DNA from: Isurus oxyrinchus
Taxonomy: Eukaryota
Direction: 5' to 3'
Assembly (NCBI GenBank): GCA_026770705.1
Contig: JANJGN010000052.1
Location: 248,001-312,000, forward strand
DNA length: 64,000 nucleotides
Shown in pieces: positions 236 through 63,550 of this stretch. The translations under genes were made by a program, and so were the position numbers. The stretch's first letter is position 1. Each line of letters starts with the position of its first letter. The notes below the pieces were generated by a model that worked only from the letters and a program-made list of their open reading frames with translations, did no database searches and was not told the DNA's origin.

Positions 236-299
236 GTAAATTTGAGTCTAGTGGATCCACAAACCATCCAGAGTTAAATATTGATATTTCTCTCCCCAG

Positions 300-3512: not shown

Positions 3513-3539
3513 AGCTTTGTGCAGCAACAATCTCATTAT

Positions 3540-4494: not shown

Positions 4495-4500
4495 AATAAA
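4495..4500 (+). terminator. Candidate polyadenylation signal (AATAAA) of the left activating Siglec
   Basis: AATAAA inside a block homologous to the 3' UTR of the central inhibitory gene. Confidence 0.4.
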
Positions 4501-4844
4501 ATTACATTGATTAACTCAAGTGATTAAAATGCTCAGCCTGTTCTGTAGATATTTAGAGATTAAAATTCTTATTTTGCTGCAAAATTCTTGGCTCAAAGAC
4601 ATTACTTCATGTTGTCACGTTTTCCAATCAGATGAATTCCTCTGTCCATCTTTATAATAGAAATTTCCAATGTAAACATGTCACATTGTAGCTGCACACA
4701 CTTGCCAGTGGCTGGTGTGATATCAAAGCTGTCTTGCTGCTCAGAAACAGCGAGAAATATTCCTGTTGTGTGCATGAACTTCATGTTAGCATGAGACACA
4801 GGCATCAGATGCAATTTTGTGCAATTTGTACAATGTTCTTTAGA

Positions 4845-10769: not shown

Positions 10770-11240
10770 TCACACACCCACACCCACACAGACACACTGA
10801 CACACTCACTCATTCACATTGACACACACTGACACAGTCACACACACCCACACAGACACACTGACACACTCACTCATTCACATTGACACACACTGACACA
10901 GTCACACACACCCACACAGACACACTGACACACTCACTCATTCACATTGACACACACTGACACAGTCACACACACCCACACAGACACACTGACACACTCA
11001 CTCATTCACATTGACACACACTGACACAGTCACACACACCCACACAGACACACTGACACACTCACTCATTCACATTGACACACACTGACACAGTCACACA
11101 CACCCACACAGACACACTGACACACTCACTCATTCACATTGACACACACTGACAGTCACACACACCCACACAGACACACTGACACACTCACTCATTCACA
11201 TTGACACACACATATTGACAGTCACACACACACACACACA
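10770..11240. repeat. ~58-bp CA-rich tandem repeat
   Basis: Repeated cacagacacactgacacactcactcattcacattgacacacactgacacagtcacacacacc. Mirrored at ~51960-52260. Confidence 0.85.
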
Positions 11241-11571
11241 CGCTCATAAAGACAGACACAAACACAGTCACGTGAGGTGAATAGTGTCGATGTATTTAAG
11301 GGGAAGCTGGATAAACACACGAGGGAGAAATGAATAGAAGGATATGGTGATGGGGTGAGATGGAGAAGGGGTGGGCGGAGACTCGTGTGGAGCAGAAACA
11401 CCAGCATGGAGCAGATGGGCCGAATGGCTTCTTTCCCTGCTGTAAAACGCAGGTAAAGTTTCAGTTGGAATTAATGAACAGGGCCTGTGTGAAATAGATT
11501 GCTAAGCAATGATAAGGAGGGGAGAGGCTGTGGCATGGTGCAGGATGACCTTGCGTGAATGAGGCCAGGGT

Positions 11572-15976: not shown

Positions 15977-16045
15977 CTCTGCCTGTCTCTTCTGATCTTC
16001 TGGCTCTGCTTTGATGCTTTGGTTTGTAACTAGAGGAGCTTCCTG

Positions 16046-16195
16046 CTCTTATACCTGAAACACTTGAAGGGGACAGCCGGGGGCGGGTTGCTGTGTGGTA
16101 TCACACCCATTTCTGGATATTGCAGTGTCGATGTTCCCTGTCCCACTGGCCTGGGACCAGCAGTAAGGTCACTGGGACATTGACTGTCTGGCACC
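16046..16195 (-). promoter_or_regulatory. Putative HAMP proximal promoter, left copy: TATAAGAG (16053-16046), GC box (16079-16087), degenerate BMP-RE GGTGCC-AGAC (16195-16186)
   Basis: TATA-like box ~70 nt upstream of the ATG. Motifs were read directly; function is inferred. Confidence 0.55.
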
Positions 16196-16619
16196 GAGAA
16201 CTATCAGTCCCTCCGCAACGCCCTTCACCTTGTGCAGATATGTGTTCATATTGACGCAACACAACATAGCAAAAACAGAGGGGCTGGTTCTTATGTCGGC
16301 AAATCAGGTGAACCGCATGCCCCCTAACCCCTTACTCCTCTCATTGCTACACTTACTATTTTACAAATTGTGTGCGTTGCTTTTATTTTGGACAAGGGGC
16401 CTCGAGGGGGAACTGATTTACGCTGAGGTTTAGGGGTTAACTGTTTACCATGTGGAGACTGTCTGTCACCAGCTTTGTTCATGGTTTATCCAGGAACATT
16501 GAAGGGCATGAACGTTCTTGCTTTGTATGGAACAAGTTACCAACTGGGTTCAGTCATCGACTCAGACTCACATCAACATAAACTGGCTTCTGACAGGTAA
16601 GTTTCTATTACATGAGGGT

Positions 16620-17220
16620 AGGAGGAGGCCATTTGGCCCCTCGAGCCTGCTCCACCATTCAATGAGATCATGGCTGATCTGCAAACTAGCCCCATATGGC
16701 TTTGTCCCATCTCCTTTAATACCTTTGGATAACAAAAATCTATCAGTCTCACAGGTTTAAAATGAACAACTTGATCGTGCATCAGTTCCTGTTTGGGGAA
16801 GAGAGTTCCAAATTTCTCCCACCCTTTGTACTTCCTAATTTAATTCCTTTTTAGGCTCTGACCCTGAGTCCCAGACTCCCCCCAACCAGGGGAAATGGTT
16901 TCTCTTTATCGCCCCCGATCTGTTCCCCTTATTATCATGCGAACTTTCATCAAATCTCCTGCTTAACATTCTAACTTCCAGGGAATACAAGCCGAGTTTG
17001 TGTTTAATCTCTCCTTGTGATTTAACCCTTGGAGTCCCGGTCTCATTCTGGTAAACTGACACTGCTCTCCCTCCGAGGTCAATATATCCTTCCTAAGGTG
17101 TGGGGCCCAGAATGTCTCACAGTGACTCCAGGTGTGGTCTAGCCAGGGCTTTATGTAGACTGAAGCATGACCTCTGCCCCCTTATATTCTAATCCGTGAG
17201 ATAGAAAGGGCAGAGTTCCA
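16620..17220 (-). mobile_element. CR1-type LINE 3' fragment
   Basis: GLEYKGAEVMLQ / LGLYSLE motifs and a CR1 3' tail. Mirrored at ~45685-46285. Confidence 0.75.
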
Positions 17221-18289
17221 GAATTGTTGTGTTTATTCGACAACAGAATAACAGAGGAAGGTTTCCTCTCTGCCCTCTTCAGCCCCACTGGGAAGGTCAG
17301 GATGAGAAGGTTGGGCTGGGTCCCCTGTACTGGACACTCGCTGAATCTTCCAATGATAGTTCTGGGCTGGATTTCAAAATGCATAGACAAGGATTCAGTG
17401 TTCCATCACATTCTGCCTTTGTCTCTTTTCCTCTCGTTCTCTTTCTCTACCATCCTCTCTCTCTATCTATCTATCTTTCTCCTCATTCTCTCCTGCTTCA
17501 TCTCTATCACTTTCTTTCTACTTCTTTGTGTGTCTCTGTCTGTCTCTCTCTCTCTCACTCTTTCTTTCCTTGTCCTTATCTCTTTCAGTGTCTCCCTCTT
17601 TCTCTCTCTCTCTCTCTCTCTCTAAATGTGACCCTCTCTAACAGTTTGGCCCAGTACTCTTATTTCCCTGTTTTACTGGTGTTCCATTTGAAGGTATACA
17701 AGACCAGATCAGACCAGAATGTTTATTTTCCAGTGTTTACTGTGTTTTTTTTCATTCTGGGTGTCTCTCGACTCTGTCTGTCCCTCTCTGTCCTTTTATT
17801 TCATTCTTTCATGTGATGTGGACATCACTGCCTAGGCCAGCATTTATTGCCCAACCCTAATTGCCCTTGTTCAGAGGCCACTTTTTAAAAGTGAACCACA
17901 TTGCTGTGGGTCTGGAGTCACATGTAGGCCAGACCAGGTAAGGACAGCAGATTTCCCTCCCTAAAGGGCATTTGTGACCCAAATACAAGAATCAGCAATG
18001 GTTTCCTGGTCATCATCGGACTTTTAATTCCAGGTTTTTATTGAATTGAAATTCCACCAACTGCTGTGGTGAGATTCTAACCAGGGTCCCAGGAGCATTA
18101 CACTGGGTCTCTGGATTACTGGTCCAGCGAAAATACCATCAGGCCCCCTCCTCCCCACTCTTCCCTTCCACCATCTTTCACAATCGCTCTCTCTCTCTCT
18201 CACTCTCCTTCTCTCTTCCCCCTCTCTCAGTCTCTGTCTGTCTCTCAATCTCTCTATCGCTCTCTATCTCCTGGAGGCTCTCTCTCTGA

Positions 18290-18915
18290 CTGTCTCCCTC
18301 CCTATATCTGTAACCTCCTCTCTCTGTCCCTTTCCTCCAGCCCCTACAACCCTCCCTATCTCTGTAACCTCCACCTGCCCCTACAATCCTCCCCATCTCT
18401 GTAACCTCCTCCACCTCCCACAACCCTCCCTATATCTGTAACCTCCTTCACAAGCCCATACAATCCTCCCTATCCCTGTAACAACCTCCAGCCCGACAAC
18501 ACCCCTATACATGTCACCTCCTCTAGCCACTGTAACCCTAATAATCTCCCAAGCCTCCACCAGCCTTGACAATCCTGCCCATCTCTGTAACATCCTCCAA
18601 CCACCACAACCCTCCCTATTTCTGTAATCTCTTCCAGTCCCTACAACCCTCCCTATCTCTACAACCTGCTCCACCCCCTGCAACTCGCCCTATCTCTGTG
18701 TCATCCTCCAGCCCCTACAACCCTCCCTATACCTGTAACCTCCTCCAGCCCCTACAACCCTCCCTATCTCTGGAACAGCTTCCAGCACTTACAACCCTCC
18801 CTATCTCTGTAACCTCCTCCAGCCCCTACAACACTCCTTATCTCTGTAACCTCCTCCAGCCCCTACAACCCTCCCTATCTCTGTAACCTCCTCCAGCCCC
18901 TGTAACCCTCCCCAT
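18290..18915. repeat. 39-bp minisatellite at the inner end of the left outer arm
   Basis: ctgtaacctcctccagcccctacaaccctccctatct units; shorter mirror at 44255-44610. Confidence 0.88.
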
Positions 18916-27416: not shown

Positions 27417-27472
<56 letters not shown>

Positions 27473-29532: not shown

Positions 29533-29596
<64 letters not shown>

Positions 29597-43895: not shown

Positions 43896-46748
43896 AAAGC
43901 CATTGTATGTGTGGAGTATTGATGGCTTCGCATAATTAAATTGCCGGCCTCAGAAGTTAGGAGCGATTATTGATGCAAGATTTAGATGGGCTTCAGTTGC
44001 GTGTGAAGTGAAGTCTTTCTCTGGGTTGATTGTATTAAAGGGAAGAATGCGTATTCTGTCTCCTCTCGTTGTCTGGTTTCAGGCCAAACATTCCACACTG
44101 CTCTCAATAAGCCCGGACATGTGCAGCCCCAGGCCTTCATGGGCCCAGCCTCCTGTCTGCAGGGTTTTCCACTTAACTCAGCAGTTTAAAGGTGCAAAAG
44201 TGATATCCTTGTTGATGATATGGAAAATGTGGGAATTTTGAGAACCCTTCAAGGGATAGGGAGGGTTACAGGGGCTGGAGGAGGTTACAGGTATAGGGAG
44301 GGGTGTAGGGGTTGAAGGTGGTTACAGAGATGGGCAGGATTGTCAAGGCTGGTGGAGGCTTGGGAGATTATTAGGGTTACAGTGGCTACAGGAGGTGACA
44401 TGTATAGGGGTGTTGTCGGGCTGGAGGTTGTTACAGGGATAGGGAGGATTGTATGGGCTTGTGGAGGAGGTTACAGATATAGGGAGGGTTGTGGGAGGTG
44501 GAGGAGGTTACAGAGATGGGGAGGATTGTAGGGGCAGGTGGAGGTTACAGAGATAGGGAGGGTTGTAGGGGCTGGAGGAAAGGGACAGAGAGAGGAGGTT
44601 ACAGATATAGGGAGGGAGACAGTCAGAGAGAGAGCGACAGGGAGAGAGAGAGCGATAGAGAGATTGAGAGACAGAGACTGAGAGAGGGGGAAGAGAGAAG
44701 GAGAGTGAGAGAGAGACAGAACAAGTGTGAAAGATGGTGGAAGGGAAGATTGGGGAGGTGTTGGCCTGATGGTATTTTCGCTGGACCAGTAATCCAGAGA
44801 CCCAGTGTAATGCTCCTGGGACCCTGGTTAGAATCCCACCACAGCAGTTGGTGGAATTTCAATTCAATAAAAACCTGGAATTAAAAGTCCGATGATGACC
44901 AGGAAACCATTGCTGATTCTTGTATTTGGGTCACAAATGCCCTTTAGGGAGGGAAATCTGCTGTCCTTACCTGGTCTGGCCTACATGTGACTCCAGACCC
45001 ACAGCAATGTGGTTCACTTTTAAAAAGTGGCCTCTGAACAAGGGCAATTAGGGTTGGGCAATAAATGCTGGCCTAGGCAGTGATGTCCACATCACATGAA
45101 AGAATGAAATAAAAGGACAGAGAGGGACAGACAGAGTCGAGAGACATCCAGAATGAAAAAAACACAGTAAACACTGGAAAATAAACATTCTGGTCTGATC
45201 TGGTCTTGTATACCTTCAAATGGAACACCAGTAAAACAGGGAAATAAGAGTACTGGGCCAAACTGTTAGAGAGGGGCACATTTAGAGAGAGAGAGAGAGA
45301 GAGAAAGAGGGAGACACTGAAAGAGATAAGGACAAGGAAAGAAAGAGTGAGAGAGAGAGAGAGACAGAGACACACAAAGAAGTAGAAAGAAAGTGATAGA
45401 GATGAAGCAGGAGAGAATGAGGAGAAAGATAGATAGATAGAGAGAGAGGATGGTAGAGAAAGAGAACGAGAGGAAAAGAGACAAAGGCAGAATGTGATGG
45501 AACACTGAATCCTTGTCTATGCGTTTTGAAATCCAGCCCAGAACTATCATTGGAAGATTCAGCGAGTGTCCAGTACAGGGGACCCAGCCCAACCTTCTCA
45601 TCCTGACCTTCCCAGTGGGGCTGAAGAGGGCAGAGAGGAAACCTTCCTCTGTTATTCTGTTGTCGAATAAACACAACAATTCTGGAACTCTGCCCTTTCT
45701 ATCTCACGGATTAGAATATAAGGGGGCAGAGGTCATGCTTCAGTCTACATAAAGCCCTGGCTAGACCACACCTGGAGTCACTGTGAGACATTCTGGGCCC
45801 CACACCTTAGGAAGGATATATTGACCTCGGAGGGAGAGCAGTGTCAGTTTACCAGAATGAGACCGGGACTCCAAGGGTTAAATCACAAGGAGAGATTAAA
45901 CACAAACTCGGCTTATATTCCCTGGAAGTTAGAATGTTAAGCAGGAGATTTGATGAAAGCTCGCATGATATTAAGGGGAACAGATTGGGGGCGATAAAGA
46001 GAAACCATTTCCCCTGGTTGGGGGGAGTCTGGGACTCGGGGTCAGAGCCTAAAAAGGAATTAAATTAGGAAGTACAAAGGGTGGGAGAAATTTGGAACTC
46101 TCTTCCCCAAACAGGAACTGATGCACGATCAAGTTGTTCATTTTAAACCTGTGAGACTGATAGATTTTTGTTATCCAAAGGTATTAAAGGAGATGGGACA
46201 AAGGCATATGGGGCTAGTTTGCAGATCAGCCATGATCTCATTGAATGGTGGAGCAGGCTCGAGGGGCCAAATGGCCTCCTCCTACCCTTATGTAATAGAA
46301 ACTTACCTGTCAGAAGCCATTTTATGTTGATGTGAGTCTGAGTCGATGACTGAACCCAGTTGGTAACTTGTTCCATACAAAGCAAGAACGTTCATGCCCT
46401 TCAATGTTCCTGGATAAACCATTAACAAAGCTGGTGCCAGACAGTCTCCACATGGTAAACACTGACCGATCAACACATGACATGGCTGTTAACCCCTAAA
46501 CCTCAGCGTAAATCAGTTCCCCCTCGAGGCCCCTTGTCCGAAATAAAAGCAACGCACACAATTTGTAAAATAGTAAGTGTCTGGCAGGAAGGAGGAGCAA
46601 TGAGAGGAGTAAGGGGTTAGGGGGCGTGCGCTTCACCTGATTTGCCGACATAAGAACCAGCCCCTATGTTTTTGCTATGTTGTGTTGCATCAATACGAAC
46701 ACATATTTGCACAAGGTGAAGGGCGTTGCGGAGGGACTGATAGTTCTC

Positions 46749-46905
46749 GGCGCCAGACAGTCAATGTCCCAGTGACCTTACTGCTGGTCCCAGGCCAGTG
46801 GGACAGGGAACATCGACACTGCAATATCCAGAAATGGGTGTGATACCACACAGCTACCCACCCGCGGGTAGTGTTTCAAGTGTTCAAGTGTTTCAGGTAT
46901 AAGAG
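46749..46905 (+). promoter_or_regulatory. Putative HAMP proximal promoter, right copy: GGCGCC-AGAC (46749-46758), TATAAGAG (46898-46905)
   Basis: GGCGCC is the BMP/SMAD-responsive hexamer of mammalian HAMP promoters, and the adjacent AGAC is a SMAD box. Confidence 0.55.
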
Positions 46906-46974
46906 CAGGAAGCTCCTCTAGTTACAAACCAAAGCATCAAAGCAGAGCCAGAAGATCAGAAGAGACAGGCAGAG

Positions 46975-49900
46975 ATGGGAAGCTCCCAGATGAAATGGCG
47001 ACTTGTCTTGTTCACTCTGACTTTGCTGCTCTCCCTGCAGCTGAGTCACTTCTTCTCCTTGTCGAGGTTAAGCTAAGAGATGTCCCTCTGGGTGAGGTGT
47101 TTCTTGCACATGACTCTACGTCTACCACCCAGATAGACTGGTCTCTTCCGCAGTTTGATATTATTATGTTCGTGCCTTTAATATTGTCGCCCTCTATGAA
47201 TTTAACATCATTTCCTTCTGTCGTTTCCCCTGAAATTCTCATTCTTGTTTTCAATCCCTCCTCAGCGACTCCCTATCTCTGTAACCTCCTCCAGCCCGTA
47301 CAACCCTCCCTATCTCTGTAAACTCCTCCAGCCCCTACAACCCTCCCTATCTCTGTAACTTCCTCCAGCCCCTACAACCCTCCCTATCTCTGTAACCTCC
47401 TCCAGCCCCTACACCCCTCCCTATCTCTGTAACTTCCTCCAGCCCCTACAACCCTCCCTATCTCTGTAACCTCCTCCAGCCCGTACAACCCTCCCTATCT
47501 CTGTAACCTCCTCCAGCCCCTACAACCCTCCCTATCTCTGTAACCTCCTCCAGCCCCTACTACACTCCCTATCTCTGTAACATCCTCCAGCCCCTACAAC
47601 AATCCCTATCTCTGTAACATCCTACAGTCTCTACAACCCTCCCTATCTCTGTAACCTCCTCCAGTCCCTATAACCCTCCCTATCTCTGTAACCTCCTCCA
47701 GAACCGACAACCCTCCCTATCTATGTAACCTCCTACAGTCCCCACAACACTCCCTATCTCTGTAACCTCCCCCAGGCCCCACAACTCTCACGATCACTGT
47801 AACCTCCTCCAGATCCTACAACCCTCCCTATCTCTGTAACCTCCTCCAGCACCTACAACCCTACCTATCTCTGTAACCTCCCCCAGGCCCCACAACCCTC
47901 ATGATCACTGTAACCTCCTCTAGACCCTACAACCCTCCCTATCTCTGTAACCTGCTCCAGACCCTACAACCCTCCCTATCTCTGTAACCTCCTCCAGACC
48001 CTACAACCCTCCCTATCTCTGTAACCTCCTCCAGGCCCCACGACCCTCAGAATCACTGTAACCTCCTCCAGCCCCTACAATGCTCATGAACTCTATAACG
48101 TCCTCTCCACACTATAACTCTCCCTATCTCTGTAACCTACTGTGGCCCCTACAACAGTATCTATTTTGGTAACCTCCTCCAGCCTCTACAACCCTCCCTA
48201 CCTCTGTAACCTCCTCCAGCCCCCACAACCCCCCCATCTCTGTAACCTCCTACAGCCCCTACAACCCTCCCTATCTCTGTAACCTCCTGCAGCCTCTAGA
48301 ACCCTCCCTATCTCTGTTATCTCCTACAGCCTCTACAACCCTCCCTATCTCTGTAACCTCCTCCAGCCGGAACAACCCTACCTAAATCTCTGGTCTGAGT
48401 CTCACTCCAGGGAATTCAGTCCCATAACGTCGGTCAACACTCCGTGCTGAGGGAGTGCTGCACTGTCAGAGGGTCAGTAGTGTGGAAGTGTTGCACTATT
48501 GGAGGGACAGTACTGAGAGAGTGCTATACTGTCGGAGGTCAGTACTGAGGAAGTGCTGCATTGTTACAGGGTCAGTACTGTGGAAGTGTTGCACTGTCGG
48601 AGGGTCAGTACTGAGGTAGCGCTGCACTGACGGAGGGACAGTACTGAGGGAGCGCAGCACTATCGAAGGGTTAATACTAAGGGAGTGCTGCAGTGTCAAA
48701 GGGTTAGTACTGAGGGAGCACAACAATGTTGAATGAGACATTAAACCGAGTCCCCCGTCTGCCCTCTCGGGCGGGTGTGAAAGATCCCACAGCCACTATT
48801 TGGAGGAAGAGCAGGGGGAGTTCTCCCCGGTGTCCTGGCACCAATATTTATCCCTCACCCAACATCACCAAAAACAGATGATCTAGGCCATGATCACATT
48901 GCTATTTGTGGGATCTTGCTGTGCACAAATCAGCTGCCACATTTCCTACAGTGTGAGTGCACTTCAAAAACATCCTTCAGTGGCTGTGAAATGCTTTGGG
49001 ATGTGGTGAAAGGCGTTAGAGAAATGCAAGTCTGTCCTCCTCCCCCTCTCTCTCCTGTACCTCTCTCTCTCTCTCTCCCTCTCCCTCAATCCTCCTCTCA
49101 CTTTCTCCCTGATAAATTCTTTCTTTTTGCAGGTTGACACTGCTTTAGGTTCTTCGACGATTGAGAAATCTGTGGATTCCCCGGACACGGTAGGTGGAAA
49201 TTCATTCCTTATTTTAAGGTTTCTCCCTGCTCGTTTCTTCCACAGAAAGTTTTCTGATTTCAAGCTGATTTCAGTGGCAGTCTGTCTCGGTTATACTCAG
49301 GAGGCATGTTTGAAATCGAGCCCCCCCCCCCGCCCCCGCCCAACTTTTTTGCAAAGCTGGGAAGAGGCAATTCCAAGGAAGTGAACATATCCCCACAGGA
49401 ATTTTAAATGTAACCCACGCCGGGAATAGTGAGAGGGAGACTGATCCAGCCTGGGAGTGGGTTAAAGAGAGGCTGGGAGTCGAGAGTCGGAGAGAGGGAT
49501 GGAATGGGGGACGGAGGGATTGGAAGAGAGAGACAGAGAGTGGGACGGGGAGGGGTGAAAGGGAAAGAACATAGGTGGGAGAGAGTGACAGAGGGAGAAA
49601 TTAAAGAAGAGATGCAGAGTGAGGGAAAGTGAAAAGGGAAGAGAGATTGTCCAAGAGAGAGAAATTAACAGGAAAGGGAGAGTTACAGAGTGAGCGAAAG
49701 GTACAAAAATAGTGTGAGAGAGAGGGAGAGATACAGAGTGGGAGAAGGAGACAGGGAGAGAGAGAGGGAGAGAGACAGGAAAAGGGAGAGAGGAGAGAAA
49801 GATTGGGAGAGAGGGCAATTGAGAGGAAGAGTAGGAGAGAGAGAGACAGGGAGAGGAGGAGTGGATGAGAGGAAGAGAGATAGAGATATGGAGCAGGAGA

Positions 49901-50050
49901 ACACCTCCTCCGGTCCCGATGTTCCTCCAAAATCTCTGACATTACTGCATCTCCCGGGACCCCCTGATTCCCATCGCTCCACCATTGGTGGCCGTGCCTT
50001 CAGCTGCCTGGGGCCCTGAGCTCCGGAATACCCTCCCTTAACCTCTCTGC

Positions 50051-50081
<31 letters not shown>

Positions 50082-51629
50082 TTAAGACGCTCCTTAAAAA
50101 CTGACATCTTTGACCAAGCTTTTGGTCACCTAACCCTAATATCTCCAGATGTGACTCAGTGTTAGACTTCTCTCTGATTTACGCTCCGGTAATGTGGGCT
50201 GGGACATTTTGCAATGTCAGAGGCGCTGTGTAAATGCAAGTTGTGAGTGTTATGTGGAAGGGAGACCCCAGGCGGCAGTCAGTGCCAGAGACTGGAGTCA
50301 TTGTGTGCAGACCATATCTAATCTCTCCGAATGCACAATCGGTTTGACTGTCAGCCAAAGCACTTTTGATATTTGATCCTTCTAACTGTTTATAACCAGG
50401 CCTACATCAAACACCGAGTGGCTGGTTAATCAACAGACACCTTAGAGGATCGAGTGAAAGACAAAGAGGACTTTGCATTTCTCTAGCGCCTTCCAACACA
50501 TCAGGACGTCCCAAAGTGTTTCGCAGACAATCAAGTGCTTTTTTTCTTTCATGTGAGGTCGCTGATGTACTGTGGGAAAAGAATCAGCCATTGGCGCACA
50601 GTAAGATCCCACAGACAGCAGCATGAAAATGACCAGCACGCTCCCAGTACTTGCACTGCAAGTGTCAGTTCAGGATGTGTGCTCGATTCTCTGCAACTCT
50701 CAGCTCTGAGTTAAAAGGACCACCAGGCATAATTGAGAAATTACCGAGCTGTCGGAGGGTCAGTACCGGCGGGGGTGCAGGACAGTCGGAGGGTCAGTAC
50801 TGAGGGGGTGCTGCATTGTCAGACGGTCAGTCTTGGAGTGCTGCACTGTCAGAGGGTCAGTACCGGCGGGGGACTGCACAGTCGGAGGGTCAGTACTGAG
50901 GGGGTGCTGCATTGTCAGACGGTCAGTACTGAGGGAGTGCTGCACTGTTGGAGGGTCAGTACTGAGGGGGTGCTGCATTGTCAGACGGTCAGTACTGAGG
51001 GAGTGCTGCACAGTCGGAGGGTCAGTACTGAGGGAGTGCTGCACTGTTGAAGGCGCTGTCTTTCAGATGAGATGTTAAACTGAGACAACATCTGCCCTCT
51101 CAGATGGATGTAGAGGATTCCATGGCCACAATTTAGATGAAGTGCGTCAGGAGTTGGGGGTATGTGTGGAGGGGGTGGTGGGGGGTGGATGGGGTGGAGT
51201 TATGTCCGCTTTCCTGGGGCAAACATTTATCCCTCAACTGACATTGGTAAAAAACTGAAAATCGGGGCCATTATCACATTTCTGTTTGTGGGATCTTGCT
51301 GTGCGTGAATTGCCTGCTGCGTTTCCTACATTACAGCGGTGAGCCCACTTCAGAAAAAGTCCTTCCTTCAGCTGTGGAACACTTTGGGCCATCCTGAGGA
51401 GGGGAAAGGCGCTATAGAAATGCGCCATCCTCCTTCCAATGACGCGCCTGATTGAAATGATGCCTTCTTTCTTTCCGGAATGTTCTCACCTATTGTCCTC
51501 CTGCTTTTCCAGGGCTCCTTGCTGCAGCGCCAGAAGAGAATGAGCAGACAGCGGCCCTGCAGATTCTGCTGTCACTGCTGTAATTGGAGAGAACCAAATG
51601 AGACTTGTGGTATCTGCTGTAGATATTAG
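46975..51629 (+). pseudogene. HAMP: Hepcidin, right copy; exons 46975-47067, 49133-49189, 51513-51629; exon frames intact but intron-1 donor GT>TT
   Basis: Mature peptide MSRQRPCRFCCHCCNWREPNETCGICCRY*. The donor reads AGG|ttaag at 47068 versus AGG|gtaag in the left copy. Hepcidin identity is secure; pseudogene status rests on one base. Confidence 0.85.
47270..48370. repeat. 39-bp minisatellite in HAMP intron 1 (right)
   Basis: About 28 units. Confidence 0.9.
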
Positions 51630-51957
51630 ACCCTGGCCTCATTCACGCAAGGTCATCCTGCACCATGCCACAGCCTCTCCCCTCCTTATCTACTGCTTAG
51701 CAATCTATTTCACACAGGCCCTGTTCATTAATTCCAACTGAAACTTTACCTGTGTTTTACAGCAGGGAAAGAAGCCATTTGGCCCATCTGCTCCATGCTG
51801 GTGTTTCTGCTCCACACGAGTCTCCGCCCACGCCTTCTCCATCTCACCCCATCACCATATCCTTCTATTCATTTCTCCCTCATGTGTTTATCCAGCTTCC
51901 CCTTAAATACATCGACACTATTCACCTCACGTGACTGTGTTTGTGTCTGTCTTTATG

Positions 51958-51989
<32 letters not shown>

Positions 51990-54107
51990 ACTGTCAATAT
52001 GTGTGTGTCAATGTGAATGAGTGAGTGTGTCAGTGTGTCTGTGTGTGTGTGTGTGACTGTCAATATGTGTGTGTCAATGTGAATGAGTGAGTGTGTCAGT
52101 GTGTCTGTGTGGGTGTGTGTGACTGTGTCAGTGTGTGTCAATGTGAATGAGTGAGTGTGTCAGTGTGTCTGTGTGGGTGTGTGTGACTGTGTCAGTGTGT
52201 GTCAATGTGAATGAGTGAGTGTGTCAGTGTGTCTGTGTGGGTGTGGGTGTGTGAGTGTGCAAGTGAATGTGTGAGGAATCTTATGACTAAGTCATTTGAA
52301 TGGATGTTACTGGGGTTAATGATAGTTAAAATTCAGAGAGATGTAAAGCGGGCTCCTGATTTTGCTGCTTTATGCTCCCGGGCACAGATTCACCCCGACA
52401 ATGTGTTCATGATTCACCATTATCTTGTCGGGACTTTAATTGTAAATATTGTGCTTTGTAAAAAAAAAATGAATAAACAACTTTTGTCTTCACAAAGTGT
52501 CTGGCTTGGTATTTCAGGCTACTTGTCTCTCCCTCACCCTCCCCCCCCACCATGCCCCCCACACCAGGGAACAATTGTCCCCCCTTCCTCTGAAGTTCTG
52601 GGTAAAGATCAGCTTTGTTCAATGCAAGCTGTTCCGACATCGAGAACGTTGTTACAAATATCTCACAAAGGGCACACGGCATGATAGCCCACTTTCAACA
52701 GATTTTACCAGTTGACCAGGTTGAAAACCTTTTCATAAACCACAACGTAGGTGTTCAATTCTTGCTGCTGTTTGCTTAATGTTCTCATAACTGCTATAAC
52801 CTCTCTAGTTCCACTACATAACAACACAAACATAAATAAACAGAAGCAGGAGTAGGCCTTTTGGCCTCCCAAGCCTGCTTGTCCATTCAATTTGAACCTG
52901 GCTCCTGCTGAAAGTTATTTAAGTTGAAGCGATAAAGCCATCAGGTGCAGGGATTAAAATGTAAGCAAAGGAAAAATAATACTTAGACATGAGATTTAAA
53001 ATCAGTTTCTGTGAAGAATCATACTGAGGCCATTCTTTCCAGAGTGAAGGGTTTAAAACTAGGAGTCACATTCAGCAGCTGCGTTGTCTTCTCTAGTTGA
53101 CTATTTGGAGGTTGCCTGTAGATGTGAATCAGCAGGTCAGCAGCTTTGGGGAGTGAGTGAAGGTCCCTTTTATTTACAGGATCTGCCACAGGGTGTGCAG
53201 GAATATTCCTGCTCAATTCTCCATCCTTGCATTCATGAAGGGTTGGAAACTGGAAGTCATATTCAGCAGCTGCAATGGCCTCTGTAGCCAACTGTCTGGA
53301 GGTTGCCTGTACAGGTGGACTCAGCAGGTCAACAGCTTTGTAGGGCGGGGGGGGTGCATGGGTAGTAAAGGTCCCTTTACTTTAAAGGCTCTGCCAGTGC
53401 AACACTTGATGATCCTGGGTCAAAACCATGTATCACCCTCCCCAACAGCACTGTGGATGTGCCCTATGGAGGTTCCTTGGCTTCGACAAGCAGCCTACCA
53501 GCTCTGCTCTCAATTCCTCTTCGCACTTGCTTCCTTCCTCCTCTGGTCTTTACTTTGTTATAGTGTTAGTGTCCGCTCTGCCTTTTTTGTAGCTTTCCCA
53601 ATTCTTCCCACCAACTCTCTCTGGCTTGATCCTTCTCTGTGCTCATCTCATTGGTTTGGGTTTCTATCCGTTCATTGACCTGGTGTAATCTGAAACTGGT
53701 GCAATCAGGTAGGGGTGGGGGGGTTGGCGCTGGCCGTGGGTGGTGATACACGGCTACCTTTTTACCAAAATTCTTTCACGGGATGTGGACAGCGTTTGTT
53801 ACCTGTTCCTGACTGACCCCTTGAGAAGGGGGTGCTGAGCTGCCTTTTCGAAGTGCTGCAGTTCGCCTGGTTTGACTGGTCTGTGGCGGGTTTTGATATA
53901 ACTCAGTGGCTTGCTCGGCCATTTCAGGGGCCAGTTAAGAGTCAACCACATTGCTGTGGGTCAGGAGTCACACGTAGGCCAGAATGGGTAAGGACGGCAG
54001 GTTTCCTTCCCCAAAGGGCATTAGTGACCCAGATGGGTTTTTGCAACAATTGGCCTTAGTTTCATGGTCACCATTACTGAGACTAGCTTCGCATTCCAGA
54101 TGTCACA

Positions 54108-56050
54108 TCCAGTCGTGGACAATTAAACAACTCACTGGAGGAGGAGGCTCCACAAATATCCCCATCCTCAATGATGGAGGAGCCCAGCACATCGGTGCAA
54201 AAGACAAGACTGAAGCATGCGCAACAATCTTCAGCCAGAAGTGCTGAGTGGGTGATCCATCTCGGCCTCCTCCGGAGGTCCCCAGCATCAGAGATGCCAA
54301 TCTTTAGCCAATTCGACTAATTCCACGTGACATCAAGAAAGGGCTGAAGGCACTGGATATTGCAAAGGCTCCAGGCCCTGACAATATTCTGGCAATAGTA
54401 CTGAAGACTTGTGTTCCAGAACTTGCTGCGCCCCTAGCCAAGCTTTTCTGGAATTTTCTAGTACAGCTGCAACACTGGCAACTACCCGGCTATGGGGTAC
54501 GTCCTGTACACAAAAAGCAGGACAAATCCAACCCAGCCAATTCCCCAGCGGTCTATTCTTGATCATTACTAAAGTGATGGAAGGGGTCATCAACAGCGCT
54601 TGCAAGAAGCACCTGCTTAGCAAGAACCTGCTCACTGACGCTCAGTTTGTGTTCCACCAGGATCATTCAGCTCCTGCCCTCATTACAGCCTTGGTTCAAA
54701 CATGCACAAATGAGCTGAACTCCAGAGGTGAGAGGGACTGCCCTTGACATCAAGGCAGCATTTGACTGAGTGTGGCAAATCAAGGAGCCCGAGCAAAACT
54801 GGAGTCAATGGGAATCGGGGGAAAACTCTCCGCTGCTTGGAGTCATACCCAGCACAAAGGACGATGGTTGTGATTATTGGGGGTCAATCATCTCAGTTCC
54901 AGGACATCACTGCAGGAGTTACTCAGGGTAGTGTCCTAGGCTCAAACATCTTCAACTGCTTCATCAATGACCTTCCTTCCATCATAAGGTCAGAAGTGGG
55001 GATGTTTGCTGATGTTTGCACAATGTTCAGCACCATTCACGGCTCCTCAGATACTGAAGCAAGTTATGTCCAAATTCAGCAAGACCTGGACAACATCCAG
55101 GCTTGGGCTGACAGGTGACAAGTAACATTCATGCCACACAAGTACCAGGCACTGACCAGCTCCAACAAGAGAGAATCTCATTGAAGGTGCAGAAAATTTG
55201 GATTTATGTTCAAGAGCCAGCCAGGACCAGCAGCTAGGGCGCCAAAGCGTACACATCCTTACGTGAAAACTTAAAAACCTGTACTAAGGGCTCAGTTGGA
55301 AATTTGCAATGAGGAAATGGGAGACACACACACAAGGACACAGGGTGACTCAATCAAGAAATGGGGAAGGTTATTTCACACCCTCCGATGGCCTTGAACC
55401 ACATCCAGTCAGCCCTCAGAAACCTTTTGTATCGAACAAACATAGATTCTTTGCTGTCTCAAAAGGACAATAGCCAGTCTCTGCCCTGTAATTACTGAAC
55501 AAGAACACAATTATCAGCCCACCGGAGGGTCATTGTACTGTGGCCTTGTCTAACTAATACCATTACCTTGTAACTGAGAGTAAAAAATATATAAACTGTG
55601 CTCATTTGAACCTCGGTGGAGAAGTGCCTGGACTGCCCAGCGTTTGCTCCCCACATGCCTAATAAAGGAACCACTTGAATATTGCATCTGGAGTCCGAGT
55701 GTTGAAATTTTGTACCAGAATATTCCACAGACCATTCATAACCATTGCCCCTTGGCATTCAATGGCATTACCATCAATGAATCCCCCAATATCAACATCC
55801 TGGGAGTTATCATTGAGCAGAAACTGAACTGGACCAGCCATATAAACACTGTGGCTGCAAGAGCAGGTCAGAGGCTCAGAATCCTGCAGACAGTATCTCA
55901 CCTCCTGACTCCCCAAAGCCTGTCCACCATCTACAACGCACAAGTCAGGAGTGTGATGGAATACTCTCCACATGCCTGGATGAGTGCAGCTCCAACAACA
56001 CTCAAGAAGCTCGACCCCATCCAGGACAAAGCAGCCCGATTGATTGGCTC
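54108..56050 (+). mobile_element. Degenerate non-LTR retrotransposon RT (mirror of 6968-8905)
   Basis: Same motifs and the same internal interruption. Confidence 0.88.
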
Positions 56051-57554
56051 CCCTTCCACAGAGCTAGATAGATTCTTGATTAACAAGAGGGTGAAAGGTC
56101 ATTGGGGGTAGGCAGGAATGTGAGGTTGAGGTGACAATCAGATCAGCCATGATCTTACTGAATGGCGGAGCAGGTTCGAGGGGCTGAGTGACCTACTCCT
56201 GATCCTAACTCAGATATCCATATGTTCTCAAAGGCAATTGGGGATGGGCAACAAATACTGGCCTAGCCAGCGACACCAACATCCCTGAAATGAATAAGAA
56301 AAAAATGTATCAATCAATTAAATTTATTGATTAATGGAATTGAAATTCCTCCAGCTGCCGTGGTGGGATTTGAACCCGTGCCTTCAAAGTATTCACCTGG
56401 GCCTCTGGATCACTGGCCTAGTGCCATTCCCATTGTGCGACTGTCTGCTATCATCATGGCTCTTTCACATCGATGTGGAAGTCCTGATAACAGAAGCATT
56501 GGACGAGGTACAGAAAGGTGACAAATCAGGAGCTCCATTGCTCAATATGAACGGATAATAAAGATAAATGAACATAAACCTTCCAGTCGCTAATTAGGGA
56601 GTCACTGTGGAGCCCATGAGTCCCTCGCAGCGCTATTGCAACCTTCTGGATCCCCAGTAGGGGACTCGGGGTGCAGCTGTGTCTTCCTCATCATTTGGAA
56701 AAGCCGGAATTGTTCGGGTGCCCCTTCAAACAGGCCGAAGATGCAGTGGGTGATGTCTCCCACAGGCCCTGGGAGACCTCCCCTGCCAATTTGTTTTGTA
56801 GCTTATTCTTCAACTGCGACATTGGATCAGCTTGAAAAAGGGTGAGGCTGAGGCAATACCACCAGGTAAGCTTCTATCCCCTCCCACTTCACCCCCCCAC
56901 CCCCGTAACCATCACAGTCCCTCCCATCGTGCTGGAGGAGCATAATGTGCACATTCCCCTCCTTCCAATCAGTCTCCTCCCTTCCTCTCTAATCCTTGAT
57001 GTTATTGTGTTCAGGGTTGACATCCCAGTCCTCCTCCCTAGACGGTCTGATGTTGACATCCCAATGCCCCATGTAGATCTGACCTCTCTCCAACTAGAGG
57101 CCCATTGTACTGTGACTTACAGAGACCACCGGCCCCCCTCGATTCCCACCCCCACCCCTACTCTCTATATTACCTGCTCCCCACTGACCGGCTGCAGATG
57201 CCTCCCCTGACTGGGATTGTGCCACCTGCGGCCAGGTATCAAGCCACCCACCCCCAGGATGGACGTGTGTGAGGGACTGACCACGTCCTGCACACCATGC
57301 TGGGCACGACCAACCCAGGACTGCCAGGCTGTCCCCACCACACTGGACTGGGACTAGAATAGGCATGCCAAGCACAGCTCTCTAAATCGTGGCACAGACC
57401 CACAGCACTCGCAATGTTTTGTGGCCCGAATCCTTGCTGAGGAACTGCCCAGCACTAAAAGCAAAAAAACTGCAGATGCTGGAAATCCAAAACAGAAACA
57501 GAAACAGAAATACCTGGAAAAACTCAGCTGGTCTGGCAGCATCGGCGGAGAAGA

Positions 57555-58035
57555 ACTGAGGTAGTGCGGCACTGTCGGAGATTCAGTACTGAGGGAGTGC
57601 TGCACTGTCGGAGGTTCAGTACTGAGGGAGTGCTGCACTGTCGGAGGGTTTGAACTGAGGGAGTGCTGCACTGTCGGAGGCTCTGAATTGAGGGAGTGCT
57701 GCACTGTCGGAGGGTTTGAACTGAGGGAGTGCTGCACTGTCGGAGGCTCTGAAATGAGGGAGAGCTGCACTGTCGGAGGCTCTGAAATGAGGGAGTGCTG
57801 CACTGTCGGAGGGTCTGAAATGAGGGAGTGCTGCACTGTCGGAGGCTCTGAAATGAGGGAGTGCTGCACTGTCGGAGGGTTTGAACTGAGGGAGTGCTGC
57901 ACTGTCGGAGGGTATGAACTGAGAGAGAGCTGCACTGTCGGAGGGTTTGAACTGAGGGAGTGCTGCACTGTAGGAGGGTCTGAACTGAGGGAGTGCTGCA
58001 CTGTTGGAGGGTCAGGACTGAGGGAGTGCTGCGCT
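57555..58035. repeat. 33-bp minisatellite (mirror of 4845-5460)
   Basis: gagggagtgctgcactgtcggaggg..tgaact units. Confidence 0.9.
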
Positions 58036-58744
58036 GTCTAAAGAACATTGTACAAATTGCACAAAATTGCATCTGATGCCTGTGTCTCATGCTAACATGA
58101 AGTTCATGCACACAACAGGAATATTTCTCGCTGTTTCTCTGCAGCAAGACAGCTTTGATATCACACCAGCCACTGGCAAGTGTGTGCAGCTACAATGTGA
58201 CATGTTTACATTGGAAATTTCTATTATAAAGATGGACAGAGGAATTCATCTGATTGGAAAACGTGACAACATGAAGTAATGTCTTTGAGCCAAGTATTTT
58301 GCAGCAAAACAAGAATTTTAATCTTTAAATATCTACAGAACAGGCTGAGCATTTTAATCACTTGTGTTAATCAATGTAATTTTATTCATAACCCAAATGC
58401 TTCTTACAATCTATCGCAGCATGAAAAAGGTGCAGCATTCAGAAAGCACATTCCAATCAGAGAACAGAGTTTAGCAACGTCACATTTCTGTTCATTCCTA
58501 TTCGACCATGTTGGCTGCACACAGCCAGACAATGCCGTGGTTATGATGTGTCCACACAGCAGGACTGGGGAGCACCAGGTATAAGGAAAAGATTCAGCTT
58601 GCTGAGGAGAAGAAGGAGAATCTCTCGTTCCAGGTTTCTCTCCGTACATTAAGAAGCAGGCATGTCGATGTTTCATTGCACTCTGTCTGCTGATGGGAGA
58701 CCGCTTGGAAATTGCTGTTTGTGCTGATGGAAAGAATAAGCTTT

Positions 58745-59325
58745 TCATAAATCGAGGGAATGAGTACAAACACAGGGAGGTTATGCTGAACATTTATAAA
58801 GCTCTGGTTAGGTCACAACTAGAGTATTGTGTCCAGTTCTGGTCTCCTCACTTTGGGAAGGAAGTGAGGGTCCTTGAGAGGGTGGGGAGGAGATTGAGCA
58901 GAATGGGTCCAGGGATGAGGGATTTTAGCTACAAGGTTGGGTTGGAGAAGCTGGGGTTGTTCTCCTTGGAACAAAGGAGATTGAGGGGGGATCTGATCGA
59001 GGTGTACAAGATGATGATGGGTTTAGATAATGTAGACAAAGAGAAGCTGTTGCCATTAGCTGATGGGACAAGGACTGGGGGACACAGATTGAAGGTTTTG
59101 GGCAGAGGGGGGATGTGAGAAGGAACTTTTTTACACAGCGAGTGGTAATGAGCTGGAACTCGCTGCCTACGAGGATGGTGGAAGTGGAGACAATGAACGA
59201 TTTCAAACAGAAATTGGACGGACACTTGGAAATAAACTCACAGGGATACGGAGATAGAGCGGGGGAATGGGACTGACTGGATTGCTCTACAGAGAGACAG
59301 CATGGACTCAATGGGCCAAATGTCC
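58745..59325 (+). mobile_element. CR1-type LINE 3' fragment (mirror of 3540-4135)
   Basis: YKALVRSQLEYCVQFWSP...RRLRGDLIEVYK. Confidence 0.88.
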
Positions 59326-59459
59326 TCCTCCATTGCTGCAATAACTCGATGATACGGAGATGATTCTAACCAGGATTCTGACCAGTTTCATTACAACTTA
59401 ACCCAACATCACACGTTATTTGTCCGCACTGACTGACCAGATTGTTGCTGTACAAAGCT

Positions 59460-62400
59460 TCAAACAGTCTGTCGACTTCCTTTCACTGTTTGTCTCTCCC
59501 AGACACAGACTCCAGCGATAGTGATAACCACAGCCACAAGGAATATCACAGCTCGTATTCCCAGGATCAGGATCACGTGCAGAATCTCTCCTCCACTGTC
59601 TAGAGAGCACACAGAAAGAAATCATCACTGACTCTCTGCTTTCAATCTCTCACTCTGGCTGAACAATCAAGCTTCATATCACTGCAACATTTGCTGTAAT
59701 ATTGACCCATCCACTGGGATTCAATGTGGAATGAATGTTTTCATTGTAAACACTCGAAGAGTGGACAATCGGAACTATCCCCTTAGCGTGGAACATTGGT
59801 GAGAATGGATCATTGTGCTGTTGGACTCCCTGTCCAATGTTTCTCTCCATCGCTGTGTACAGGATTGTGCTGTAGAAAATTCTGGAAACGTTTAGTGCAG
59901 GGTGGAAATCCATCTCGGACGTGTGTGCGAATCGGGCAGGATCGAGATGGACTCCCCCACGGACTTACAACCCCCGCTTAATAAACAGTTCCAATCTTTA
60001 CCCAGAGAGAGAGGAGAATGTGGAACTCGCTCCCACAGGGAGTGGTCGAGGTGAATAGTAGCAAATTAGGATGGGAAATTGCTTGAAAAGCTAGGAGATG
60101 CAAGGGTTAAGTGCTACCGTGCCACCACTGGTGGGAGAGTGTAACTACAGCGTGACGTTTACATAGGCAATCCCCATTATGAACTTGGACATTGGACATC
60201 ATGTGCAAAATGGGCTCTGGAAAGGTGAGAACATGATGTAAGCTTTTCACCAACAGAAATTCCTTCGTAAACCTCTCCATCTCTCTCTTACTGTCAGATA
60301 CTCAAACAACATTTCACACAGAATTACATAAGGAGGAGTTGGGACAGGTGACTGGTCAAAGGGTTAGATTTCAGGAAGCTTTTTAAAGGAGGATAGAGAG
60401 TTAGAGAGGCAGAGAGTATCTGTGAGAATCTCTGTGCATCTGGGTGTCTAATAGACTTTGCAATTTCCGCATTCTTCCATAAACTTGAAAGGGAATACAA
60501 CTCCCAGAATCCATGTCAACTCTCCGGTGCAGCACTGAGGGAGGTCAGGTAACCCACGGGGGAGAATGTGTTAGTGTGTTTGTTTGTGAGTGTGTCCTTT
60601 TGTGTGCTCATACATGTGGGATTGTGTGTCTGCACGTGTCTATTTAGGTTTGTATAATTGTGTGTGTTTGTGTAGTGTTTGAATCTGAGAGAGCTGTTGA
60701 AGTCTGTGTACACTCACGTTCCACAGTGATGGTTATGAACCCCTCCACTGCTCCATGTTCATTCTCTGCCACACACTGATAGTCTCCAGTGTCCCTGGAT
60801 GTAACGTGAGGAATCACCAACCACAGCTCATTGTTGGAACTTGTTCTGTTCATTGTGATATTCAGATGTCAGGGCAGGACTCAACATGACAGATCACAGG
60901 TTTACCAACAGGAAGTGAACAACAATTTATATTTAATGGGAAGAGAGTGCTGATTGATTGGCAAGTGGTCTCTGATTGGAGGCGGTGTTGCCATGGAAAA
61001 TAATGTGTGCGAGCTGTAAAGTTTAGGCAGATTGTCTCTTCATTCAGCAATAATCAAATAAAGATCAGTTAACTTCTATCGACTGTGAAGCACTTTGAGA
61101 GGTCTGAGAATGTAGATACTGAGAACGGGCTGCACTGTCAGAGGGTCAGCGCTGAGGGAGTGCTGATGTAGAATGAAAGGTGTCGGTACTTACCTTGCAC
61201 AGTTAGTATGAGGGTCCGCTCCGATGAAACAGATGGATATCTCACTCTGCAGCTGAGAGTGTGTCCGTGGTGTTTGAGTGATGGGATCAGGGTCAGAACA
61301 GAAGTATAGGTCAGAGTGACACCATGCTGAGTTACAGTGTTTGAGACTGATCCAGGTACATCAGTGGGAGTGTCCCAGGTTAAGACAGGTGCTGCTGTTC
61401 CATTGCACGTTGTGTTGAAGGTGCAGCTTACATCCATACGCTTTCCTGCAATAATTTCAGCAGGGAATATCATGGGTTTATCTGTGAAATCTAACAGACA
61501 GAGAATGGATCCTTTTGGAGAAATATAACGTGAAACATCAGTTCAAATAGAAACCACAGTCCCACAAGAGAAAGCACTTTTACAAGGATGATATCAGAAC
61601 TGAGAGATTACAACGATCAGGAGAGAATTTCCTATTTTCAGACTTAGTGGATTTTCTGTCTCTCAGATGAATTCACTTCCACTTTGAGACAATTGAACTG
61701 ACAATCCCAGGTGAGGGTGGGGGAGCAGCTCACAGTTCCTGACACACTGGCTTGTTACTTTCTCTGAAATCTGCCAGATTTAAATTCTATCCTGTTCCCA
61801 GCAGGAGAGAATCCATTTGAACCAATCACTGAACCGGCATCTAAAACAGATGATCAGGTTATTGATCACATTGCTGTTTCTGGGAGCTTCCTGTGAATAA
61901 ATTGGCTGCTGTGTGTCCCATATTACAACAAGGGCAACATTTCAAGAATTATTTCATTGGTTGTGAAACCATTTGCAACGTACAGAGGTGTTGAAAGGCG
62001 CTATAGAAATGCGAATCTTTCTTTTGTCGATATGTAAAACTGTCAAACAGGGTTAGGGAGATCGATGGGAGTGGATAACCTGATAACATTGATGGACACA
62101 GTCAATACTTTTAATCATTGATATTAAAGTGAGTATTAGAGGTTGCTTTAGGACTGAACTGGAAGCTATCACCAGGTTATTGAGAATCAGACAGTGTGCT
62201 ATAATAAGCTGTGTTTTGTGTTAATATGTAAACGTCACAGTTTGCGTTATTTCCCATTGAGTGTTGAATGTGAATTGTTGAGTAATTATAACACAGCACT
62301 TACCAGAAACGTGAAGCTGGGTTACAGGGTAATAGTTATGGCTCGGACCATTGTCAAATTCTATCCTGAAAAAATAAGGTCCTGCATCTTCCCGTCTGAT

Positions 62401-62672
62401 GTTGTTTATAATCAGGGAACAGTCGCCATCTTTCAGGTTTCCAGACAGCCAGGTCCGATGGTGGAACCGTGGTAACTCGTGACTGTGATCCTTGGAGTGA
62501 AAGGCAATGGGAGCCCAGGGAATCTGTTTCTCATTATTAAACCAGAGTCCACCTCGCGGTTGGTTTTCCAGACACGATGGATAACTGTAATGACAAGGAA
62601 TCTGTACACACGAACCTTCCTGCGCTGTCACCTCTCGTGGAGTGTCACCGTTCCACTCTTGTGAGGGTTCAA
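59460..62672 (-). CDS. Siglec-like activating-type receptor, right copy; exons 62672-62304 (V), 61490-61194 (C2), 59599-59460 (TM+tail); leader exon not identified
   Basis: Same splice sites and open frame as the left copy. YFFR Arg is retained (AGG), the TM exon is identical, and V has seven amino-acid differences. Confidence 0.8.
60718..60871 (-). pseudogene. 5'-truncated C2-set exon remnant (mirror of 2101-2254)
   Basis: MNRTSSNNELWLVIPHVTSRDTGDYQCVAENEHGAVEGFITITVE with no acceptor. Confidence 0.8.
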
Positions 62673-62739
62673 CTGGGGAGAGAAATCTCAATATTTAACT
62701 CTGGATGGTTTGTGGATCCACTAGACTCAAATTTACAGA

Positions 62740-63550
62740 TGAGGCTGAATTGGGGGGATGGTCAATACTGAGGAGGACTACAACAAATTATTTTGGCAGG
62801 AAGAATAGAAAAACAGGATATTATTTAAATGGAGAGAGGCTGCTGAATGCAGTACAGAGGGATCTGGGTGTCCTTGTACATGAATCACAGAAAGTCAGCA
62901 TTCAGGAACACCACGGAATGAGGAAGGCAAGTGGAACGTTGGCCTTTATTGCAAAGGGATGGAGTATAAAAGGAGGGAAGTCTTGCAACAGCTGCACAGG
63001 GTGAGATTATATCAGGAGCAGTGTGTACAGTTCTGGTCTCCTTACTTAGGGAGGGATAGACTCTGCATTGAAGGCAGTTCAGAGGACGTTCACTGGGCTG
63101 ATTCCTGGGATTAAAGGGTTTGTCCTGTGAGGAAATGTTGAGCAGGTTGGGCCTGTATCCATTGGAGTTTAGAAGAATGAGGGGTGACCTTATAGAAACA
63201 TATCCGATTCCGAGGGGGCTTGACAGGGTGGATGCTGGGAGGATGTTTCCCCCTCGTGGGGGAATCTAGAACCAGGGAGCACAGTTTCGGAATGAGGGCT
63301 CTCCCATTCAAGACTGAGATGAGGAGGAATTTCCTCTCTCAGAGGGGCGCTAGCCTGTGGAATTCTCTTCCCCAGACAGCAGTGGAGGCTGGGCCATTGA
63401 ATAGACTCAAGGCTGAGTGAGGCAGGTTTTTGATCGACAAGGGAGTCAAGGGTTTGGGGGACAGGCAGGAAAATGGAGTTAAGGCCACAACCAGATCAGT
63501 AGAGCAGGCTGGAGGGGCCGAATGGCCTGCTCCTGTCCCTATTTCTTATG
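62740..63550 (+). mobile_element. CR1-type LINE 3' fragment upstream of the right V exon
   Basis: YYLNGERL..VQRDLGVLVHES, FPLVGESRTR, FKTEMRRNFLSQR...LWNSLP and a CR1 tail. Confidence 0.88.

Follow-up and report, generated by a model that had tools for sequence, protein, structure and literature searches.

Two shark hepcidin copies in an inverted duplication with Siglec-like exons differ by five mature-peptide replacements and likely belong to a larger family

The closest described counterparts of the locus reported here are the HAMP2 expansions of teleost fish (papers are cited here and below from excerpts). Six hepcidin genes are reported in the large yellow croaker (PMC6240063), and the gilthead seabream carries hamp1 plus hamp2.1-2.14, fifteen named genes in all (PMC11043163). 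Like the shark genes, these are three-exon genes in clustered copies, some with identical mature peptides, and they vary outside the eight cysteines, including by single-residue changes of charge; in the croaker, one Arg/Gly difference alters hepcidin potency. The mature sites of multi-copy fish HAMP2 have also been described as positively selected (PMC3325200, citing Padhi and colleagues; PMC6240063), as an excess of replacements at non-cysteine mature sites following duplication (PMC3325200), which is the pattern considered below for the shark. That work applied site models to 15 HAMP2 sequences and treated HAMP2 as confined to acanthopterygians, whereas the shark case concerns few sites, concentrated in codons 2-6, in a cartilaginous fish. 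With HAMP1-type and mammalian hepcidins (PMC5665920; PMC13407002) the shark genes share a signal-like stretch, a pro region, an RX(K/R)R convertase site and an eight-cysteine core, together with a GGCGCC-like promoter motif in one of the two copies; they differ in the N-terminal tail, which in HAMP1 is of the QSHL/QSHI type. In human hepcidin the N-terminal five residues engage ferroportin (PMC13407002), and this stretch corresponds to the most variable part of the shark peptide. Hepcidin protein is mentioned once in an excerpt on nurse shark plasma (PMC9207270), the excerpts of PMC6795676, PMC3832898 and PMC7067429 make no mention of shark hepcidin copies, and our search of the main text of openly accessible papers returned no report of hepcidin copy number, selection or expansion in cartilaginous fish. 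Genome annotations may already list some copies.

The stretch of DNA analysed here, hereafter the window, comprises 64,000 nucleotides of an Isurus oxyrinchus contig (JANJGN010000052.1, positions 248,001 to 312,000), and all coordinates refer to it. Most of the window is one inverted duplication, in which 1-18660 is paired with 44252-62980 and the arms are separated by six N gaps (24168-41275). Each arm holds a three-exon hepcidin gene lying tail to tail with Siglec/CD22-like Ig exons, and the window contains only these two hepcidin copies. The arms and the Siglec-like exons are as follows.

44252..62980, plus strand: right arm, with hepcidin and Siglec-like exons; 93-97% identical overall to 1-18660 in a minus-strand self-alignment
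1..18660, minus strand: left arm of the inverted duplication, truncated by the left end of the window
62224..62694, minus strand: Siglec/CD22-like V-set exon in an open frame (Pfam V-set and Ig_CD22), co-duplicated; left counterpart 278-748, plus strand
61141..61542, minus strand: Siglec-like C2-set exon in an open frame, co-duplicated; left counterpart 1430-1831, plus strand

Unlike teleost HAMP2, the shark hepcidin is part of a long unit that also contains Siglec-like exons. Of 106 candidate proteins, 96 were matched by the V-set exon, every one named from sharks and rays; its best matches were Siglec-like proteins of the white shark (95-96%), with 91% in the basking shark, which points to a lamniform shark as the likely host. 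Between the arms, the plus strand at 28157-30859 carries three tandem Ig-domain exons, spaced at about 1.1 kb and 89-91% alike, part of each also matching 60686-60870; this is likely a Siglec-like gene with repeated exons. A partial V-set frame lies on the minus strand at 20942-21745, and because its portion 21274-21745 matches 62809-63266 at 89%, it represents a further, older Siglec-like copy. A second inverted pair sits inside the main arms (25143-27470 and 39890-42421, 98% and 91%) about another axis of symmetry, and LINE remnants are seen as reverse-transcriptase fragments at 34761-35258 and 54732-55115, about 86% alike and under the Pfam cut-off. In unique non-coding DNA of the arms, 284 of 14786 columns differ (1.9% substitutions), with 19 indel events outside tandem repeats in about 15 kb, and the divergence is patchy (variance 8.6 against a mean of 3.8 per 200 columns).

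The hepcidin genes themselves are laid out as listed here.

46975..47067, plus strand: right exon 1 coding sequence, 31 codons, with a second in-frame ATG at 46990 and a hydrophobic signal-like stretch, judged by eye
49133..49189, plus strand: right exon 2, 19 codons of the pro region; 10 X1 contigs (see below) hold the exon 2-exon 3 junction
51513..51629, plus strand: right exon 3 coding sequence, including the stop codon
51513..51539, plus strand: right exon 3 pro end with the RQKR convertase site, the same in both window copies
51540..51626, plus strand: right mature hepcidin, 29 residues, 8 Cys, minor type; Pfam PF06446 at 29.9 bits (cut-off 27)
51540..51557, plus strand: N-terminal tail ahead of the first Cys, a replacement hot spot with three of the five left/right differences
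52472..52477, plus strand: first A(A/T)TAAA polyadenylation-like signal past the stop
15884..15976, minus strand: left exon 1 coding sequence, followed by an intact GT donor
14020..14076, minus strand: left exon 2
11572..11688, minus strand: left exon 3 (mature 11661-11575); Pfam PF06446 at 31.6 bits; dominant type at all five differing sites

Both copies score above the curated Pfam cut-off, their mature peptides carry cysteines at positions 7, 10, 11, 13, 14, 23, 26 and 27, and the RQKR ahead of the mature peptide fits the hepcidin convertase motif as given in PMC3325200. The left copy has three exons with GT-AG introns and an open prepropeptide of 88 residues with a single stop at its end. 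The peptide matches PDB 1S6W only weakly in sequence (E 0.36), and at 29 residues it has a loop four residues longer than that structure, a further departure from teleost HAMP2. Word-index searches with the exon-3 frames and a full phmmer scan returned no hepcidin homologue; the sole phmmer match, P0002, is a repetitive protein and on inspection unrelated. By their sequence features the window genes classify as hepcidins, and they would be placed neither with the HAMP1 type, whose QSHL/QSHI-type tail is absent from both, nor with HAMP2, since the host is a shark and HAMP2 is described as acanthopterygian in the excerpt of PMC3325200; by analogy, the amplified shark hepcidin may nonetheless work like HAMP2. 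An N-E-T glycosylation sequon occurs at residue 20 of both mature peptides (51597-51605), adjoining the extended loop. An intronic ATG in frame with exon 3 (51480-51512) places 11 mostly hydrophobic codons ahead of the pro end; this frame is probably a by-product of the pyrimidine tract, and could also be a route that bypasses exon 1. The stretch from exon 1 to exon 3 takes in a 1.1-kb tandem repeat.

Upstream of the mature peptide, the two copies part at the first splice donor and in the promoter.

47068..47069, plus strand: broken intron-1 donor of the right copy in the assembly sequence, TT where the left copy has GT
46898..46903, plus strand: TATA-like box, the same in both copies
46749..46754, plus strand: GGCGCC, resembling the BMP-response element, in the right promoter, with T at the third base in the left copy

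With intron 1 starting TT, the right copy departs from the open three-exon, GT-AG structure of the left. All five candidate GT donors within 270 bases lead to a stop after 33-40 residues, as do intron retention and exon-2 skipping (with two donors), and the mature peptide is not reached. As assembled, the right copy is thus predicted to be incapable of making the mature peptide, and because of the TT donor and the absence of a nearby donor that restores the frame we regard it as probably dead: a hepcidin gene by descent that is now probably a pseudogene. The T at 47068 (G in the left copy, at 15883) is the one difference found beyond the 264 compared coding nucleotides at this boundary, and no other base differs in the 384-base stretch that contains it; the right copy carries no further coding lesion. 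The original prediction held that both copies had been functional until recently; with the right donor broken as assembled, recent function of the right copy can be inferred only from right-type letters in other, transcribed copies. In the promoters, two BMP/Smad-like motifs (46433-46447 and 46749-46763; left copy at 16470 and 16195, minus strand) each differ by one base between the copies, with exact GGCGCC in the right copy only. The BMP element motif is named in an excerpt of PMC3879105. GGCGCC occurs six times on the two strands of the window, so that a function for it is unsupported. The promoters are just 92% identical over 46500-46975, with insertions of 26 and 15 bases, and the right promoter has a replaced block 15 bases upstream of the TATA box.

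Within the coding sequence, the original prediction had contrasted 0 differences in 177 nucleotides of prepro sequence with 5 in the 87 nucleotides of the mature region, and on re-alignment these counts are exact. Exon 1 (93/93), exon 2 (57/57) and the 27-nucleotide pro part of exon 3 are identical between the copies, and the five differences, at 51543, 51553, 51556, 51573 and 51612, give the left-to-right replacements G2S, Q5R, L6P, N12H and L25I. It was also correct that all eight cysteines are spared, their positions being the same in both copies, and that the right copy is more cationic (K+R-D-E of +3 against +2, plus one His in the right copy). The probability it attached to five changes all falling in the mature third, (87/264)^5 = 0.0039, is arithmetically right, and an empirical gene-shaped null gives 0.0034 (of 3528 placements with five differences, 12 left the prepro part unchanged), though these placements overlap and hence are not independent, and the null is built from the uneven divergence of the arms themselves. 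A low-divergence tract over exons 1-2 (46875-49300, with 4 of 882 non-coding differences, 0.45%) was considered as a full explanation, which fails against the same null. The figure of 0.0034 nevertheless mixes prepro conservation with mature excess. The two parts do contrast, but half of the effect comes from the conserved prepro sequence (0/177, for which the divergence rate of the arms gives P 0.03), and the excess in the mature region taken alone is marginal: for 5/87 against 284/14786 in non-coding DNA, P is 0.026 by the binomial and 0.049 with empirical windows, rising to 0.065 when the local 2.5 kb is the reference.

Public sequencing contigs bear on whether these differences are real and on how many genes carry them. 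Contigs were taken for the stretch 51430-51930 from 4 of 24 listed runs, one run per sample: X1, X4 and X8 are three samples of organism A, X10 is from organism B, a related species, and X17-X20 (word shares 0.07-0.09) lie outside the contig analysis. X1, which may come from the assembled individual, is treated as RNA because 10 of its contigs span the exon 2-exon 3 junction and its exon depth is about 500 times its intron depth. Both letters are found in the contigs at all five sites, and the differences are therefore not assembly errors. Left-type letters dominate at every site in X1 (83-99% of summed depth, which is a poor measure of expression) and in X4, and are the only ones in X8; right-type letters occur at all five sites in X1, two in X4, none in X8 and one in X10. 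Transcription of the exact right haplotype had been a candidate reading of the X1 word share of 0.75, and was rejected, X1 holding intron contigs and mixed variants. Four variants, at 51526, 51536, 51791 and 51802, are found in neither window copy, and variants occur in mixed combinations across contigs. The first two, Q to L at 51526 and K to N at 51536, both fall in the 27 exon-3 bases of the pro end, so that across the family this part varies too. The change at 51536 turns RQKR into RQNR and may alter processing; it is present in X1, and in X4 it accounts for 24% of the depth, the same depth as is found for the S2 letter. In X1 the only non-left depth at 51553 (9717) equals the depth of a contig with a convertase-site change, which is absent from the right copy; the match suggests a third copy type beyond the two in the window.

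One X1 contig (behind 51545) has a pro end and Met-Ser followed by a His-Leu-Ser-Ile tail and a different cysteine core. The tail resembles HAMP1 tails printed in the excerpts of PMC5665920 and PMC6240063, and this one contig, unlinked to any locus, suggests a separate, diverged HAMP1-like hepcidin gene in the shark. Another single X1 contig, with a lysine-rich loop ahead of 51601, may belong to the same transcript, and the right-type letters of X1 at 51543 and 51612 may come partly from it.

Contig depth points to a family much larger than a pair. Single-contig depths were used, summed contig depth being no copy number. In X4 two single contigs (246 and 109 nt) have depths of 1535 and 1513, flat over intron and exon, against a background median of 23 (range 13-174; 19 repeat-bearing contigs and joints elsewhere in the genome), and are thus about 65 times the background. 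In X10 a contig of 415 nt reaches depth 490 where the background median is 21 (n=15), about 23-fold, and in X8 the values are 16.6 and 2.9 (n=7), about 6-fold, with a background that is probably floor-limited. These baselines are repeat-bearing contigs rather than known single-copy genes, and a haplotype-specific background would halve the estimates, to 33 (X4) and 12 (X10). The minor letters of X4 at 51543 (24%) and 51573 (17%) lie on contigs at 10-12 times background depth. Taken with the four variants that the window pair lacks, the contig depth is most economically explained by tens of near-identical copies, and the pair is likely two members of such a family. The inferred number, 12-65 depending on species and baseline, is higher than in teleost HAMP2, and the shark copies are far more uniform.

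The framing of the original prediction, in which two duplicates alone diverged, is accordingly probably wrong. As an explanation in its own right, namely that there are two functional duplicates only, under diversifying selection, one of them recently broken or its donor an assembly error, we consider it improbable. It would accommodate the P of about 0.004, which holds under the empirical null, the TATA box kept in both promoters, and a right copy whose solitary donor lesion is known from the assembly alone. Contig depth and the extra variants point instead to many more copies than two; two further DNA samples of organism A have contigs without R5, P6 or I25, although rare variants tend to be lost from contigs; and the non-left depth at 51553 in X1 equals that of a contig with a pro-site change foreign to the right copy.

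We consider it very improbable that the comparison is between alleles, or between pieces of a mosaic assembled over the gaps, rather than between true paralogues. A divergence of 1.9% substitutions plus 19 indels in about 15 kb of unique DNA would be high for two shark alleles. The six N gaps between the arms would suit such a construction, as would the left copy's T deletion at 51691, listed in none of the four runs, and the full right haplotype, which is spanned by none of the contigs listed for them. All five right-type letters nevertheless occur in X1 contigs, and two of them in X4, where minor shares of 24% and 17% in one individual misfit a single diploid locus.

Comparison with organism B gives the differences a direction. 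At 51543 its single 415-nt contig has the letter of the right copy, and at the remaining four sites that of the left copy. R5, P6, H12 and I25 would accordingly be derived on the right lineage, and G2 would be the derived residue on the dominant type. When organism B is set against organism A (the X8 contig), 5 of 18 tail bases differ, and each of these changes, which lie in codons 2, 3, 4 and 6, replaces an amino acid. Over the remaining 69 bases of the mature region the only change is a silent one; the pro end has a single replacement, and at most 5 of 190 non-coding bases differ, with one unlisted difference counted as non-coding. Divergence is therefore 28% in the tail against 2.6% in the flanks (P 0.0005 for tail against non-coding; 0.004 without the site common to the left/right pair; 0.015 against the intron alone), the tail, as the first 18 nucleotides, having been singled out after the data were seen, though it is a natural unit. 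Over the whole mature region the contrast between the species is not significant (6/87 against 5/190, P = 0.09). Organism B also has 22 extra intron 2 bases (behind 51460), and one contig without branches covers its exon 3, so that its copies look uniform, in contrast to the variable ones of organism A.

With respect to selection, the evidence is moderate. Two features that the original prediction read as signs of selection, that the changes are only non-synonymous and that they miss every cysteine, require nothing beyond chance, which would give five replacements and no silent change with P 0.18-0.38 and spare the cysteines with P 0.19. The co-duplicated Siglec exons differ between left and right at 14 of 648 bases, in 8 replacement and 6 silent codons, and this 8:6 compared with the hepcidin 5:0 gives P of about 0.11 (calculated by hand). 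As dS is 0, non-coding divergence served as a proxy in the dN/dS test: five replacements per 63 replacement sites amount to 7.9%, against 1.9-2.4% in non-coding DNA (P 0.008-0.018), and on the right lineage four replacements stand against 0.6-0.7 expected under simple neutral decay (P 0.003-0.014). When the coding variants of exon 3 are pooled, the resulting count of 11 replacement to 1 silent is consistent with neutrality (P 0.10-0.21). Diversifying selection, as originally proposed, thus draws support from replacements at 3-4 times the non-coding rate and from the excess on the right lineage, but not from the replacement-to-silent counts, which are unremarkable (P 0.10-0.38).

These counts give some room to a multi-copy family without positive selection, in which only the prepro part and the cysteine core stay conserved while drift acts on the tail and on dead copies, and conversion from older, more diverged copies introduces clustered differences that resemble selection. 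We regard this as unlikely, if the most serious of the alternatives: neither 5:0 nor 11:1 is significant, the divergence of the arms is patchy, the right donor is broken, variants are combined in mixed ways across contigs and the diverged paralogue is a possible conversion donor. Relaxation, however, cannot exceed the neutral rate, which the right-lineage replacements do, and between species the tail has diverged by 28%, its flanks by 2.6%; conversion would moreover be expected to bring silent and flanking changes, and none is among the five.

The reading we favour, somewhat over the alternatives taken together, is that the five replacements are real, that the pair likely belongs to a tens-of-copies family in a Siglec cluster, the left type being dominant and the right copy minor and probably dead, and that the tail is probably under positive selection. 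The history would most likely begin with amplification of a segment that holds hepcidin together with Siglec exons, after which recombination would keep the copies uniform while copies are born and die, a birth-and-death turnover with homogenisation. The left type would be the working majority and the right copy a minor variant that lacks its first donor; the residues that mark it most likely originated in working copies and reached it by inheritance or conversion before the donor broke. Replacements in the tail would then probably be positively selected in a peptide no longer needed as an iron hormone. More speculatively, and by analogy with teleost HAMP2, the amplified type may be mainly a secreted antimicrobial, freed from iron control by the HAMP1-like gene.

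Since selection on duplicated fish hepcidins is already known, the left/right observation alone is a new example of it; the surprise is the probable scale of the amplification, which in sharks we found unreported in the literature searched. A broader possibility, which we advance tentatively, is that lamniform sharks independently repeated the teleost HAMP1/HAMP2 split, with one iron-hormone gene and 30-65 amplified copies accompanied by Siglec genes, above the counts in the cited literature, very highly transcribed, their tail freed from ferroportin and positively selected within and between species. If sharks of this group do have tens of copies next to Siglecs, along with a separate HAMP1-like gene, the division between iron hormone and defence peptide would have happened twice in jawed vertebrates, and current shark assemblies would be collapsing the hepcidin locus. 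The natural variants, one to five tail residues apart, would offer a series in which the trade-off between ferroportin binding by the N-terminus and antimicrobial activity could be followed.
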